Shown here: in pieces, positions 4,496 through 29,759 of the stretch
How the letters are laid out: the number at the start of each line of letters is the position of its first letter
Position numbering within the stretch: position 1 is the stretch's first letter
From: Staphylothermus marinus F1
Lineage (GTDB): Archaea > Thermoproteota > Thermoprotei_A > Sulfolobales > Desulfurococcaceae
Assembly: GCF_000015945.1 (NCBI RefSeq)
Contig: NC_009033.1
Location: 1,470,001-1,502,000, forward strand
Length of the DNA stretch: 32,000 nucleotides
Direction of reading: 5' to 3'
Notes under the pieces: generated by a model
The model's database searches: none
Told to the model about the DNA's origin: nothing
What the model saw: the letters and a program-made list of their open reading frames with translations, nothing else
Translations under genes and position numbers: made by a program

Positions 4496-5344
4496 TTACC
4501 TAAGCCTTTCTTTTAATGCATACACACCATAACCTATGAAAGCTATAAGTTCAATAATTGCTAGTACATTATGTGCACTGTTCGCTTCATATCTAAATCT
4601 ATAAGCATCTATTCTTTCAAGTATATCCCATGTTTCCAGTACATCTCCTAATAATTCATCTCTCAACATTATTTCTACAATATAGGGTTTATCAAGCACT
4701 AATGGTTTTACCTCGCCTTTCCTAAGCCTATTAATTGCTTCAGCAATTCCTTCCCTAAGCTTATCGAGAACATCACCAATGCTTTCATATATTGCTGCAT
4801 AACGTGTTATTCCCTGTTTAAAACCAATGAATACAGCCCATGGAGTATATTTTGAAACCTCATCTCTTAATAGAGAATCTCCCGCAACAAGTATTACTGG
4901 AACCCCTTTTTCACCAGCTACAAGAGCGTTTATCAAGTACTCACTAGCTCTTCTACCATTCAATTTTATTTCAGCAAATACTTTTCCGCTCATAGTATGA
5001 TCGAGGAAACCATGCATTGTTCCAGCAGCTGTATGGTATCCTATAAATAATACAGAATCATATGAGTTATCAAGTCCCGTCAACATAGAGTATGGTCTTG
5101 GAAAGCCTTGTATTAGAGAAGTATTTTTGGGTAGTTCTAAATAATCAATATTGGTCATATATCCATGACTATCCGCAATAACTACTTTATCGAACCCATT
5201 ATTCAGTAATGCCTTAGCTGTCTCCTTAGCGATCATTGTCATAATTCTTGATCCACGACTATACTGGGTATAACCGGGAGAAACCATAGTTGTAGATGCT
5301 ATACCGGGTAACCCCTCAATATCGATGGAAACATATGCCTTCAA
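4496..5344 (-). CDS. dppA: D-aminopeptidase DppA (peptidase family M55)
   Basis: N-terminus MKAYVSIDIEGLPGI and IADSHGYMTN are typical of M55. Length is 282 aa. Confidence 0.75.
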   Translation of the reverse strand: MKAYVSIDIEGLPGIASTTMVSPGYTQYSRGSRIMTMIAKETAKALLNNGFDKVVIADSHGYMTNIDYLELPKNTSLIQGFPRPYSMLTGLDNSYDSVLFIGYHTAAGTMHGFLDHTMSGKVFAEIKLNGRRASEYLINALVAGEKGVPVILVAGDSLLRDEVSKYTPWAVFIGFKQGITRYAAIYESIGDVLDKLREGIAEAINRLRKGEVKPLVLDKPYIVEIMLRDELLGDVLETWDILERIDAYRFRYEANSAHNVLAIIELIAFIGYGVYALKERLR

Positions 5345-6797: not shown

Positions 6798-7182
6798 AAT
6801 ATCAGCAACTTTTTATGTAATCTTCCTATCCACATCTATTCATTATACATTATTAACCATTAGTTGTCTAATATTTTAAACCAGTTCTCCACTTAAAAAT
6901 TATCTGTCTATAGAAGAATATGTTAACCATTATAAAATAAGTATATTTCCTAGAATATATTAATAAACAAATTATTACTCTATTGTTTTTGATGGATTTT
7001 TCTTATTGAAGAAGACTATAATATGTTAAGGTTAGCGTTAATATTTATTGAAGAGATAAATTTGTTGTACATCTTGGATTATTTCTAGGAAGAACATGTT
7101 GCTCCTGCATTATTTAGCATGAACAACCACATAACAACTAAAATATTATTAAACAATCATAGTATTCATGGTTTCCAAAAAG

Positions 7183-7352
7183 AAAAACACCTGAACAAAT
7201 GAACAGTGGTTGCCCGTGCTTTATTTTTTGGTTGTTTTGGAAACTTTGGATGCTTGCACGGGCTTCCCCCTCTTGGGTTGGGGCTTCGCTCCTTCATCGT
7301 GGGGGTTATCGGGTCTCCACCAAGACCACTTTGAGCCCTTCATCCGCATTTC
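7183..7352 (-). ncRNA. Candidate structured ncRNA, family copy 1
   Basis: G+C island in A+T-rich DNA. An 8-bp stem (7212-7219 with 7256-7263) closes a 36-nt A/U loop. GGGCTC/GAG(A)CCC forms a hairpin. AGTGGT (sense) is complementary to the tail ACCACT (7205-7210 with 7325-7330). Two T5 runs on the sense strand lie at 7177-7187. The ends are approximate. Confidence 0.55.
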
Positions 7353-7382
7353 CCAAATCATTAACCATTATATTAGTGAGGG

Positions 7383-7390
7383 TTTATAAA
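7383..7390 (-). promoter_or_regulatory. TATA-box-like TTTATAAA preceded (sense) by GGGTTCGC, upstream of ncRNA copy 1
   Basis: The same GGGTTCGC-TTTATAAA-CCC module is found in all three units. A second A/T box (AATATAAT, sense) lies about 20 nt from the core start, so the exact TSS is uncertain. Confidence 0.45.
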
Positions 7391-7479
7391 GCGAACCCAA
7401 TAATTAAAACAATCATGGTTTCCACAATTTTCCAAAACAACTATAATATCCAAATAAGCGAATAGTCTTCAATGGGTGA

Positions 7480-7878
7480 ATGGGTATGAGTATACGAGTT
7501 GGTTTGAGGAGAGAAATGGATTATGTTGTATCTGAAAATGATGCACCAAAGTTCTTGTTGGATAAGGGGGTTGGTGTTCTTAGTACTCCTAGAATGATCG
7601 CGTTGATGGAGGGGAATTCGAAGAGGTTGCTTGATCAGTTTTTAGGAGAAGAATATACTAGCGTAGGCATACATGTGGATGTGTATCATAAGGCACCAGC
7701 ACCTGTTGGTTCAAGAGTTAAGTTTGTATCGGAAATTATAGAGGTTAAGAAGAATAAAGTTTTGTTTAAAGTAAAATGTGTGCTTAACGACATAGTTGTG
7801 GGAGAAGGTATTCATGAAAGAGCAATAGTTTCTTGGAACAAGTTTATAGAACATGTTAAAAAGATTATGGGAAAATAA
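7480..7878 (+). CDS. Hotdog-fold thioesterase (FlK-like / COG5496 type)
   Basis: SVGIHVDVYHKAPAPVGSRVKFVSEIIEVKKNKVLFKVKC...GEGIHERAIV fits the family pattern. Confidence 0.65.
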   Translation: MGMSIRVGLRREMDYVVSENDAPKFLLDKGVGVLSTPRMIALMEGNSKRLLDQFLGEEYTSVGIHVDVYHKAPAPVGSRVKFVSEIIEVKKNKVLFKVKCVLNDIVVGEGIHERAIVSWNKFIEHVKKIMGK

Positions 7879-11957: not shown

Positions 11958-12323
11958 CTATTTCTTCTCTAATCCAAAGATCTCCCCATATTTTCTCCCA
12001 ATAAGTGCTTCTAATAATTTCTCGTTCTTCTTAATATAAGATAATAACATGCCTAAAGCATCAGATAAAGAACTATAATCTTTCACAACCAAGTAATGAG
12101 CCATTTTACGTATAGTACCCATTACTTTCTCATCGCTCATCAATGCTTAAACCCCTCTCCTACCTCTTTTACTCAATAAATAGTTACTTATAGCTGGTTG
12201 GCTAACGCCGAGCATTTTTGATGCTTCAACCTGAGTATACTCATATTCCTCAACTAGGATCTTAGCTAGAATAGCTCTAATTGCTGGAAGAATATATTTG
12301 GAGACTATTCGCTTATCTAGATA
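11958..12323 (-). pseudogene. XRE/COG2522-like HTH regulator, 5'-truncated and split by an in-frame TAA
   Basis: The minus frame 12323->12150 reads YLDKRIVSKYILPAIRAILAKILVEEYEYTQVEASKMLGVSQPAISNYLLSKRGRRGV. There is no ATG/GTG/TTG before the HTH, and a TAG sits at 12324-12326. A TAA at 12147-12149 is followed in the same frame by the 61-aa ORF 11958..12143. Confidence 0.5.
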
Positions 12324-12387
12324 CTATAGTTATTTTGGAAGCTATGGAAATAATGGTTGTTTTGGAGGCTTTGGAGCTTGGGTTCAA

Positions 12388-12395
12388 TTTATAAA
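12388..12395 (+). promoter_or_regulatory. TATA-box-like TTTATAAA upstream of ncRNA copy 2
   Basis: GGGTTCAA-TTTATAAA-CCCC module, with the G+C-rich core starting about 35 nt downstream. A second A/T box (CAATATAATGG) lies in between. Confidence 0.45.
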
Positions 12396-12427
12396 CCCCC
12401 TACAATATAATGGTTAATGGTTTAAAA

Positions 12428-12590
12428 CTGCAGATGAAGGGCTCAAAGTGGTCTACGTGGAGCCCCGAGAGCCCCCTCCGTGAAGGAATGAAGCCCCAAC
12501 CCAAGAGGGGGAAGCCCGTGCAGATATCCAAAGTTTCCAAAACAACCAAAAGATAAAGCACGGGCAACCACAGCTTCACACCATGTTTTC
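12428..12590 (+). ncRNA. Candidate structured ncRNA, family copy 2
   Basis: GGGCTC 12439-12444 pairs with GAGCCC 12460-12465. CCCCCTC 12472-12478 pairs with GAGGGGG 12505-12511. GCCCGTGC 12514-12521 pairs with GCACGGGC 12558-12565 and closes a 36-nt A/U loop. GTGGT 12448-12452 is complementary to ACCAC 12567-12571. A T4 run lies at 12586-12589. The ends are approximate. Confidence 0.55.
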
Positions 12591-12723
12591 AAAGTCAATA
12601 GAAAACCCCTTTTATCCAACAACTAATCTATACTTGTTCTGCTTATAACTCTTCTATTTCTATATTATTTAAATTGTTTGTGGGAATAAATATATATTTA
12701 GAGAATCATGTTCTATTTGGGGA

Positions 12724-24316: not shown

Positions 24317-24380
24317 AGACTATTCGCTTATTTAAATACTAGGCTTATTTTTAGGGAATTATGAAAAACATAATTATTTG
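24317..24380 (+). repeat. Solo left-end module of the dispersed unit
   Basis: AGACTATTCGCTTATTTAAATACTAGGCTTATTTTTAGGGAATTATGAAAAACATAATTATTTG aligns with the first 60-65 nt of copies 1-3. No G+C-rich core follows it. Confidence 0.7.
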
Positions 24381-25069: not shown

Positions 25070-25271
25070 TTTATTGAGCTGTTCACTAAGTTGACCCTAC
25101 TATTTCCATCCACAAGTTTATAAGTGTATGAACCACTGGTTTGTTTTATATCTTGGCTGTTTTTAGAACGTTATATGTGGGGCTTGCTTTATAAACCCCA
25201 TATATCCCAAGTTCGTGTTAGGGGAATTTTAGCTTATATTTTTACGTGGAACTTTAAAATGGAGGAGGTTT

Positions 25272-26949: not shown

Positions 26950-27125
26950 AAGTTTAGGCGTTTCCCCACCCTTATTATTTCTGAGTATTTTTGATTATTT
27001 TCCATGGGTGGGGTTAGCTCTTGGTGTGGGATCACCTGCTTCACCCACACCTCATGGGGCTCGGTCGAGCCCAACGCCATGGGGCTCCCATTTGTGGATA
27101 AGTATTTTAAGCCAATATTTATTGC
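26950..27125 (-). ncRNA. Divergent member of the candidate ncRNA family (copy 4)
   Basis: The architecture matches copies 1-3 but with different helix sequences. CCCCACCC 26964-26971 pairs with GGGTGGGG 27006-27013 around a 34-nt A/T loop. GGTGTGGG 27023-27030 pairs with CCCACACC 27044-27051. GGGCTC 27057-27062 pairs with GAGCCC 27067-27072. GGCGTT 26957-26962 is complementary to AACGCC 27073-27078. A/T boxes lie at 27100-27122 on the sense-upstream side. The strand is assigned by analogy only. Confidence 0.45.
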
Positions 27126-29258: not shown

Positions 29259-29426
29259 TAGTGAATAGGGGGCTCAATCCATATAATACCCCTAATTAAT
29301 TTCTGCACAAACCCGTATACCCTAATAATGGAAACAGGTAATAGTTAAGTGGGCAATTACTACTAGTAAGACTATTTGCTTATTTGGATACTATAATTGT
29401 TTAGAGGAGCTTATTGTTGGGTTCGC

Positions 29427-29434
29427 TTTATAAA
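29427..29434 (+). promoter_or_regulatory. TATA-box-like TTTATAAA upstream of ncRNA copy 3
   Basis: GGGTTCGC-TTTATAAA-CC module. The G+C-rich core (GCAGATGAAGGGC) starts 23 nt after the box, a typical archaeal TATA-to-TSS spacing. Confidence 0.5.
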
Positions 29435-29455
29435 CCATTTATAATTGTTTGTAAA

Positions 29456-29624
29456 ATGCAGATGAAGGGCTCATGGTGGTTTGTGTGGAGCCCCAATAGC
29501 CCCTTCCGTGAAGATGATGAAAACCCAACACAAGAGGGGGAAGCCCGTGCAAGTATCAAAAATAACCAAAATAACCATAGTTTCTAAAAGATAATGCACG
29601 GGCAACCACTGCCTGTTTGTTTTG
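29456..29624 (+). ncRNA. Candidate structured ncRNA, family copy 3
   Basis: GCCCGTGC 29543-29550 pairs with GCACGGGC 29596-29603 around a 45-nt A/U loop. GTGGTT 29476-29481 is complementary to AACCAC 29604-29609. CCCCTTC pairs with GAGGGGG using a U-G wobble that works only in this orientation. T-runs lie at 29616-29623. Confidence 0.55.
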
Positions 29625-29759
29625 GAAACTATGAAAACCATGGTTGTTTTATGAGTTCTTAAACAAAACTCCTACCATGTTATATTATTATTTATTAGTA
29701 TATGGTCTTGGCTTAGATTTTTATGAAAATATTGTTTATTTAACAGAAATTATTCTTTC

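Follow-up and report, generated by a model that had tools for sequence, protein, structure and literature searches.

The stretch of DNA analysed here (the window) comprises 32 kb of the genome of Staphylothermus marinus F1. It holds three copies of a short unit without genes of its own: copy 1 on the minus strand, and copies 2 and 3 on the plus strand. An initial annotation of this DNA drew attention to an inverted repeat, in which the A/U-rich loop of an RNA hairpin in each unit is the reverse complement of a motif in the flanks. The units are very probably non-autonomous MITEs (miniature inverted-repeat transposable elements) of the IS607 family, and the repeat would represent recognition arrays for the transposase TnpA at the two ends of the element.

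Organization of the units

All three units share one layout. A left end (LE) is followed by a TATA box, ~145 nt from the 3' end of tnpB and a right end (RE), after which come 16 variable nucleotides beyond the sequence AACCAC. The TATA box precedes the first base of the tnpB-derived scaffold by ~25–30 nt in the three window copies and in miniatures of other genomes. The box GACTATTYRCTTRTTT... occurs four times in the window, in the three units and in a solo LE, and recurs in many related loci. The hallmarks of a MITE are all present: both ends of an autonomous element, no open reading frame (ORF), and three copies plus a solo LE within 32 kb. The copies are mutually 76–89% identical; the scaffolds of copies 1 and 2 agree at 89% over 146 nt. 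To identify left ends, an LE profile was built from other genomes only, with the window units left out. It matches four LEs in the window (E = 3e-9 to 7e-5).

Copy 2 is a complete element of 269 bp (12303–12571, plus strand), extending from GACTATT... to ...GGGCAACCAC; the LE profile matches it at 12303–12350 (E = 8.6e-9). Its LE motif array (12330–12375), which includes the 22-mer singled out by the initial annotation, is a set of putative TnpA-binding sites, assigned from its letters and from phasing common to the whole family. The TATA box (TTTATAAA, 12388–12395) stands ~30 nt 5' of the start of homology to the TnpB omega RNA, at the same place as in the miniatures of other genomes. The segment that follows (12426–12571) is the 3' remnant of tnpB and the omega-RNA scaffold. 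It begins with a first stem-loop, SL1 (12439–12444 with 12460–12465), for which the homologous type-A stem shows covariation, and a GUGGU at 12448–12452 is able to pair with the ACCAC at 12567–12571. The terminal hairpin (12514–12565) has its arms at 12514–12521 and 12558–12565. Its loop (12522–12557) carries the RE motif array and also contains the stop codon TAA of the remnant reading frame (12554–12556). The predicted guide is the flanking DNA just past the RE (12572–12587), variable after CAACCAC and unique in the window; a T-tract follows.

Copy 1 is a MITE of 262 bp on the minus strand (7206–7467; LE profile E = 3.3e-9). Its LE starts at 7467, the TATA box lies at 7383–7390 and the scaffold at 7206–7351. 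The hairpin has arms at 7255–7262 and 7212–7219 and a loop at 7220–7254, and the predicted guide (TGTTCATTTGTTCAGG) occupies 7190–7205. Just outside the RE, in LE orientation, lies a segment resembling the interior of an LE (7145–7184, minus strand). Copy 3, of 240 bp (29370–29609, plus strand; LE profile E = 7e-5), lacks the interior motif block in its LE. The TATA box is at 29427–29434, the scaffold at 29454–29609, the hairpin arms at 29543–29550 and 29596–29603 around a 45-nt loop (29551–29595), and the predicted guide (TGCCTGTTTGTTTTGG) at 29610–29625. Overlapping this guide, and outside the RE, is another LE-interior-like segment (29617–29651, plus strand; LE profile E = 0.027). Both the partner motif 29620–29633 and the near-palindrome 29634–29650 listed by the initial annotation lie inside it. 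The solo LE of the same family (24318–24366, plus strand; E = 7e-8) has no RE downstream. A second target for the guides of the three copies was searched for in the window and none was found.

The inverted repeat in the window

The significance of each match between loop and flank was scored against 1000 shuffled loops. In copy 2, the 22 nt at 12354–12375 (TGGTTGTTTTGGAGGCTTTGGA) are reverse-complementary to 12527–12548 at 20 of 22 positions (91%); the score of 17 compares with 5.6 ± 0.9 for shuffled loops, and none of the 1000 shuffles reaches it. The corresponding 22-mer in the loop of copy 1 (7229–7250) is identical. It has partners on both flanks: on the left, arms at 7223–7246 and 7426–7449 match over 24 nt (83%, p < 0.001), and downstream TTTTGGAAAC(CATG), at 7167–7180, is an exact match (p = 0.004). 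In copy 3, 29576–29589 (CATAGTTTCTAAAA) pairs with 29620–29633 (TTTTGGAAACTATG) at 13 of 14 positions plus one G-U (p = 0.003). The complementarities reported for all three copies by the initial annotation are thus borne out, as is its statement that the 3' sequences after AACCAC differ between copies. Nor is the motif common or randomly placed in the window. The 13-mer TTGTTTTGGAAAC, allowing up to two mismatches, occurs 11 times against 0.84 expected, and seven of the 11 occurrences fall inside the three units.

The repeat is built of short, regularly spaced elements. TGG half-sites in the LE of copy 2 begin at 12337, 12346, 12355, 12364 and 12373, in steps of 9 bp, and CCA half-sites in its loop begin at 12528, 12537 and 12546, again in 9-nt steps. 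Positions 24–51 of the LE profile also match on the opposite strand, in the RE loop of copy 1 (E = 0.004) and in that of copy 2 (12549–12526, E = 0.02).

TnpB remnants and the omega-RNA scaffold

A transposase or nuclease body was sought in the window with Pfam on the large ORFs and with tblastn using TnpA and TnpB, and none was found, in agreement with the initial annotation. The tblastn search returned only a C-terminal 43-residue tnpB remnant at each unit. The copy 2 remnant is 77% identical to the last 43 residues of the S. marinus TnpB P0108 (E = 8e-20), and that of copy 1 is 68% identical to the C-terminus of TnpB P0106 (E = 3e-16). In copy 3 the remnant frame is interrupted. The loop of this copy, regarded earlier as remodelled, encodes RGKPVQVSKITKITIVSKR, the exact C-terminal tail of P0106. 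Three S. marinus TnpBs (P0106, P0108 and P0111) terminate in the sequence that the units have kept. A search of the genome for tnpB had been proposed, and cognate TnpB genes are indeed present elsewhere in S. marinus F1. These full-length TnpBs were compared as protein sequences; the ends of full-length elements are known here from other archaea. The G+C-rich 'RNA' of the units can be recognized as the 3' end of tnpB with an overlapping omega-RNA scaffold because the tnpB ORF of relatives has its 3' end within the hairpin loop.

Compensatory changes abound in the seven pairs of SL1 in 35 type-A relatives. The SL1 loop, GUGGU(G), is able to pair with the ACCAC at the 3' end; these bases are near-invariant and hence yield no covariation signal. 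Such a pairing would fit the published description of omega RNA (PMC10690162). Across ~70 loci, conservation stops at ...GGGCAACCAC (CAACCAC), and the next bases are unrelated and variable in each copy. Judged from the alignment, this stop is the signature of an RE followed by a guide, and the guide of each unit is read as the variable 3' tail after AACCAC, which is flanking DNA, and not as the A/U loop. The promoter of the window variant could be that of tnpB, as the junction between promoter and scaffold (GGATGAAGGG) resembles the start region of that gene.

Membership of the units in the omega-RNA class rests on this genomic context, without an Rfam model: at the gathering score and E ≤ 1, no Rfam family matches the units. 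A scan for tRNA and transfer-messenger RNA gave no match in them either. Single-sequence folding of copies 1 and 2 yielded discordant structures whose z-scores are weak and not significant.

Relatives in other archaea

Relatives were collected with the hairpin pattern GAAGCCCGTGC-N20-50-GCACGGGCAACC, using one genome per species. The scan yielded 77 loci, 72 of them from thermophilic archaeal genomes, often with several per genome. In at least 13 loci, a same-strand ORF of 413–465 aa ends ~40 nt into the hairpin, within the loop. The encoded proteins match Cas12f1-like_TNB above the cut-off (E = 9e-10 and 1e-15) and RuvC_1 weakly, and by these domain matches are classified as TnpB. Two loci, L030 and L043, carry LE and RE 2045 bp apart, enclosing TnpA and then tnpB. 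The L043 TnpA (206 aa, 2283–2903) combines a Resolvase domain (E = 3.4e-28) with an N-terminal HTH_17 domain (E = 1.6e-14). It is the pairing of a serine-recombinase tnpA with tnpB by which the IS607 family is defined. Further relatives are tnpB-only and ~1.5 kb long. In at least 20 loci, LE and RE are 237–273 bp apart with no gene between them and the same layout of LE, TATA box and omega RNA as in the window. The TATA box of L043 lies within the LE, ~30 nt before the tnpA start; in L073 the same LE–TATA sequence is fused to the scaffold. The scaffold variant specific to the window had no match in a metagenome scan, nor did the hairpin pattern in a scan of viral contigs. An assignment to IS200/IS605 elements with the hairpin ends of a Y1 TnpA was dropped: the LE has no matching hairpin, and L043 encodes a serine recombinase.

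Several features of the relatives deserve mention in their own right. Type-A TnpBs (L006, L030, L053 and others), inspected by eye, read ...FNAQYVACLNL... at the expected third RuvC acidic residue, with Q in place of D; type-B and S. marinus TnpBs, likewise by eye, retain ...TRDIVASWNL... there. The substitution suggests an inactivated or rearranged catalytic site in type A. A conserved ORF of 48 aa (MSIVYVFEASIVKYTRDRIVIYPPKDYQEKLRKFHGRKVKVQIVIEPE) lies antisense between LE and tnpB in L018 (528–674, minus strand) and also in L013, L022, L025, L036 and L038. In these tnpB-only relatives it matches no Pfam family and has no recognizable DNA-binding domain. In L016 (5989–6048), L018 (1936–1993) and L039 (5759–5830), the RE hairpin has a flipped loop whose T-rich strand is the top one, as if the DNA between the two 8-bp G+C arms of the stem had been inverted; the flip alters the C-terminus of TnpB in L018. 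L012, binned as Woesearchaeota, and L041, binned as Thermoproteales, share the element together with its downstream flank, as does L067, also binned as Thermoproteales, as far as it extends; L012 and L067 have upstream element sequence in common as well. Because element and flank are common to loci assigned to different phyla, binning errors are likely, and a spread of the family across phyla is uncertain.

End arrays and junctions across the family

The LE and RE of 36 elements were compared. A TTTTGG-type core has 27 occurrences on the top strand of the LEs against a single one on the bottom strand; in the RE loops it has four on the top strand against 49 on the bottom. Flanking DNA holds six to nine such cores per 3.5 kb in either orientation. 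Counted from the LE terminus, runs of GG in the LE are most frequent at 17, 26, 35 and 44; counted from the RE terminus, runs of CC in the RE loop are most frequent at 18, 26, 35/36 and 44/45. The modal spacing of half-sites is 9 nt at both ends. LE and RE are degenerate mirror images of each other, built of half-sites with 9-bp phasing. The elements have an imperfect subterminal inverted repeat and short repeated motifs, and no true terminal inverted repeats.

Direct comparison of the ends leads to the same picture. An LE scores 10.4 against its own loop and 7.35 ± 1.33 against shuffled loops, with 17 of the 36 elements above the 95th percentile; the match is inverted in 31 of the 36. Against the loops of other elements an LE still scores 9.65, and its own loop beats dissimilar loops in 22 of the 36 elements. 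Subfamily-specific co-variation of the LE motif with the loop was sought in the same elements, and none was found beyond the window's own subfamily.

Junctions were examined in 37 LE/RE pairs. There is no target duplication in 23 of them, and the remainder show 1–3 nt, which is chance level. AC is common to the two junctions (G-AC-TATT... and ...CAACC-AC), with a purine before the LE (position −1) in 35 of the 37. IS607 elements usually carry a GG core dinucleotide at both junctions and in the target. By analogy, AC may be the crossover dinucleotide here, with RGAC as part of the target or transposon-adjacent motif.

LE-like segments lie outside the RE of copies 1 and 3. That of copy 3 (29617–29651) resembles LE positions 27–63 of copies 1 and 2 with z = 9.1–9.6, and it is exactly the block absent from copy 3's own LE. 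That of copy 1 (7145–7184) matches LE 27–68 (z = 3.2, p = 0.012) and is identical to the copy 3 segment at 33 of 42 positions. No such segment was found at copy 2, and other loci show no enrichment of this kind. The segments are possibly remnants of an adjacent or tandem element, which is conceivable because the LE junction keeps the original target.

Interpretation and proposed mechanism

The anatomy of the units, their homology to full-length elements, the mirror layout throughout the family and the position of the motifs relative to the promoter together make it very probable that the units are non-autonomous IS607 MITEs, and probable that the flank–loop repeat represents subterminal TnpA-recognition arrays acting as double-stranded DNA. 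IS607 ends are described as having an imperfect inverted repeat near the ends, with short motifs bound by TnpA in units of ~10 bp. Dimers of this helix-turn-helix (HTH) serine transposase bind the motifs cooperatively, and a filament on one end captures the other (PMC6188088). Excision of an IS607 element of C. botulinum depends on short inverted motifs at its LE and RE, and its RE, which overlaps the omega RNA, has to serve TnpA as DNA and TnpB as RNA (PMC10690162). By analogy, TTTTGG(A)-type half-sites phased at 9 bp on the top strand of the LE, and the mirror array (CCAAAA) in the RE, would be coated by a dimeric HTH serine transposase, TnpA, which would pair both ends for excision and integration. 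The RE array coincides with the A/U-rich loop of the last omega-RNA hairpin, together with the last codons of tnpB and its stop. As the LE array abuts the TATA box, TnpA bound there probably also affects transcription from the adjoining promoter. We infer that the units are transcribed and that the RNA is used in trans by the TnpBs of the genome. It is common for gene-less elements to encode omega RNAs that work in trans, and, following a proposal in the same work, the variable 3' tails would act as guides with which TnpB directs cleavage of the empty site (PMC10055086).

Several points weigh against this assignment. Binding of the half-sites by TnpA is extrapolated from IS607, IS1535 and the IS607 element of C. 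botulinum. Because GACTATT and the hairpin arms served as search patterns, their invariance in the family is partly by construction. The junctions carry AC in place of the usual GG, and details of recombination may differ. In the diverged loci L022, L025, L035, L045 and L047, the similarity of LE and loop is no better than chance, and the flipped loops of L016, L018 and L039 are unfit for a strictly orientation-dependent site. The LE-like segments beyond the RE of copies 1 and 3 are left unaccounted for. Finally, only a truncated tnpA is reported for S. marinus F1 in the 2009 genome paper (PMC2678158), and the sites may be out of use in this genome.

Could the motifs act in RNA? Pairing of the A/U loop of the omega RNA with flanking RNA or DNA, whether serving as a riboregulatory switch or, in the way of a bridge RNA, as an additional guide to the element's own ends, would explain the long complementarity of copies 1 and 2 (20 of 22 positions in the latter). 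The minimum-free-energy fold of a read-through transcript of copy 3 also joins the loop with the downstream motif (z = −2.9), and the RNA is part of an RNA-guided system. A protein site on double-stranded DNA is favoured nonetheless, because the LE motifs precede the TATA box and hence fall outside the promoter-driven RNA. Motifs downstream of the units follow oligo-T tracts, occur in only two of the three window copies and show no enrichment in other loci. Since the match of an LE to its own loop is scarcely stronger than to those of other elements (10.4 versus 9.65), it is the consensus that is conserved and not the complementarity. The 9-bp phasing and the equal distances from both termini favour a protein array, and the loop is flipped in three loci. 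Pairing at the RNA level is consequently most improbable. The alternative helix or switch suggested in the initial annotation is not supported, for the same reasons: its LE copies precede the promoter, its downstream copies follow T-tracts, and the complementarity is not element-specific. The comparison with IS110 bridge RNA is unsupported as well, since nothing IS110-like, and in particular no IS110-type (DEDD) recombinase, is present in the window or the related loci. Of the suggested guide-like recognition, the part that stands is that the RNA is a TnpB omega-RNA scaffold in a transposon-derived unit; the guide, as read here, is the 3' tail and not the A/U loop. Closest to the evidence came the suggestion of operator sites for a dimeric DNA-binding protein, with phased mirror arrays, one of them just 5' of the TATA box, in its favour; that the protein would be TnpA is argued by analogy.

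Sites for a different protein, such as a host factor, the antisense 48-aa protein or a regulator of the promoter only, would suit the abutment of the array on the TATA box. Type-B relatives, which like the S. marinus elements have no tnpA, carry the conserved 48-aa ORF beside the LE, and the reported truncation of tnpA in S. marinus (PMC2678158) points in the same direction. The same LE and RE motifs are nevertheless found in TnpA-encoding elements without the small ORF (L011, L030, L043 and L057), an operator serving only the promoter would need no mirror copy at equal distances on the far end, and the 48-aa ORF has no recognizable DNA-binding domain. This alternative is improbable. It is still less probable that the repeat has no present function, being the relic of an ancestral terminal inverted repeat or of a past duplication or inversion, kept by descent in A/T-rich sequence. 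The possible want of an active transposase in S. marinus (PMC2678158) would agree with a relic, as would the identity of the copies (76–89%, not very recent) and the weak significance in diverged subfamilies. Against decay stand the strand biases of 27:1 and 4:49 and the phasing at fixed distances in dozens of genomes despite divergence of the rest of the LE and loop sequence; moreover, motifs equivalent to these are needed for function in one IS607 element that has been studied (PMC10690162).

If the arrays are TnpA sites, a further step can be contemplated. In many archaeal lineages, and for both scaffold types, the deletion brings a TATA promoter precisely to the scaffold's 5' end, with the array directly upstream. 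The miniatures might be selected 'guide-only' cassettes, in which TnpA at the LE controls transcription of a trans-acting TnpB guide; this proposal is rather doubtful. Were it true, excision would be coupled to the supply of homing guide, or else the gene-less elements would parasitize both TnpA and TnpB, and the stretch embedded in the loop would be at once a DNA site and a dispensable RNA loop.

Neighbouring features of the window

The solo LE is followed by a PaREP1 gene, and a promoter-like box at 25176–25204 is very similar to the box of the units. Upstream of copy 2, a start-less ORF with weak Pfam HTH matches (12144–12323, minus strand) runs into the LE. Deletion of 12303–12571 fuses this ORF in frame to a 17-codon start at 12572–12622 (minus strand), and a small HTH gene may have been interrupted by copy 2; a homologue spanning the restored junction was sought and none was found. 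Read outward (7441–7480), the LE of copy 1 contains a TATA-like CTATAATATCC ~30 nt before the ATG of the gene at 7480–7878, for which it is a possible outward-facing promoter.

Elsewhere in the window, ~100 nt at 26997–27100 form a G+C-rich segment in a stretch of 49% GC. It is 82% identical to positions 4609–4708 of L072, from a Desulfurococcales metagenome-assembled genome, with at least one compensatory change (GTGTGGG..CCCACAC versus GTGCGGG..CCCGCAC). The fold z-score is about −2.9 on either strand and Rfam gives no match for this segment, a candidate unannotated structured RNA.

Relation to known systems

The units are already known as MITEs of S. marinus and do not constitute a new kind of system. 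The 2009 genome paper (Anderson et al. 2009, BMC Genomics; PMC2678158) reports 14 MITEs of ~260 nt in S. marinus F1, 'flanked by inverted repeats', which resemble DNA upstream of four IS607 orfB-only elements. It counts five IS607-family elements in the genome, four of them orfB-only, with a truncated orfA. Genome and size are the same, and these MITEs are almost certainly the window units. The paper predates omega RNA and leaves the RNA, promoter, guide and phased half-sites undescribed. In the literature searched, no paper joining Staphylothermus with TnpB was found. What is added to the 2009 description is the reading as omega RNA with a promoter and the phased, mirror-image half-sites, in an application of known principles. 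For annotation, the G+C-rich 'RNA gene with TATA box' found in the genomes of S. marinus and many hydrothermal archaea can be labelled an IS607-type MITE with an omega RNA, and its loop–flank complementarity as transposase-recognition repeats. Defined ends, a scaffold and candidate promoters are thereby supplied for a hyperthermophilic TnpB system.

Gene-less palindrome-associated transposable elements (PATEs) with TnpB omega RNAs (Meers et al. 2023) are alike in having a scaffold over the 3' end of tnpB that ends at the transposon boundary, a variable guide, covarying stem-loops and a possible pseudoknot. In both cases TnpB would be needed in trans. Unlike PATE-like elements, the units are of IS607 and not IS200/IS605 type and lack the hairpin ends of a TnpA(Y1); the miniatures also have a TATA promoter immediately at the scaffold's 5' end and no Rfam match. 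The IS110 bridge RNA is likewise a structured RNA encoded by a transposon, with a loop complementary to DNA at the element end. Its target and donor loops are programmable, whereas the complementarity of the units is a consensus shared by both ends, and their loop probably sits inside the recombinase-binding part of the RE.

The closest systems are IS607, IS1535, ISC1926 and the IS607/IStron elements of C. botulinum. Full-length relatives of the units resemble them in encoding an HTH serine TnpA, with tnpB second. The ends agree in the lack of target duplication, the imperfect inverted repeat, motifs ~10 bp apart and an RE overlapping the omega RNA. Unlike the usual IS607 elements, the window family has AC and not GG at its junctions, and its half-site arrays are equidistant from both ends. 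It differs further in that the RE array appears as a large A/U loop in RNA, because it is enclosed by the two arms of an 8-bp G+C stem. The family thus offers a natural example of one stretch of DNA under two constraints, as a probable array of TnpA sites and as a hairpin of the omega RNA.

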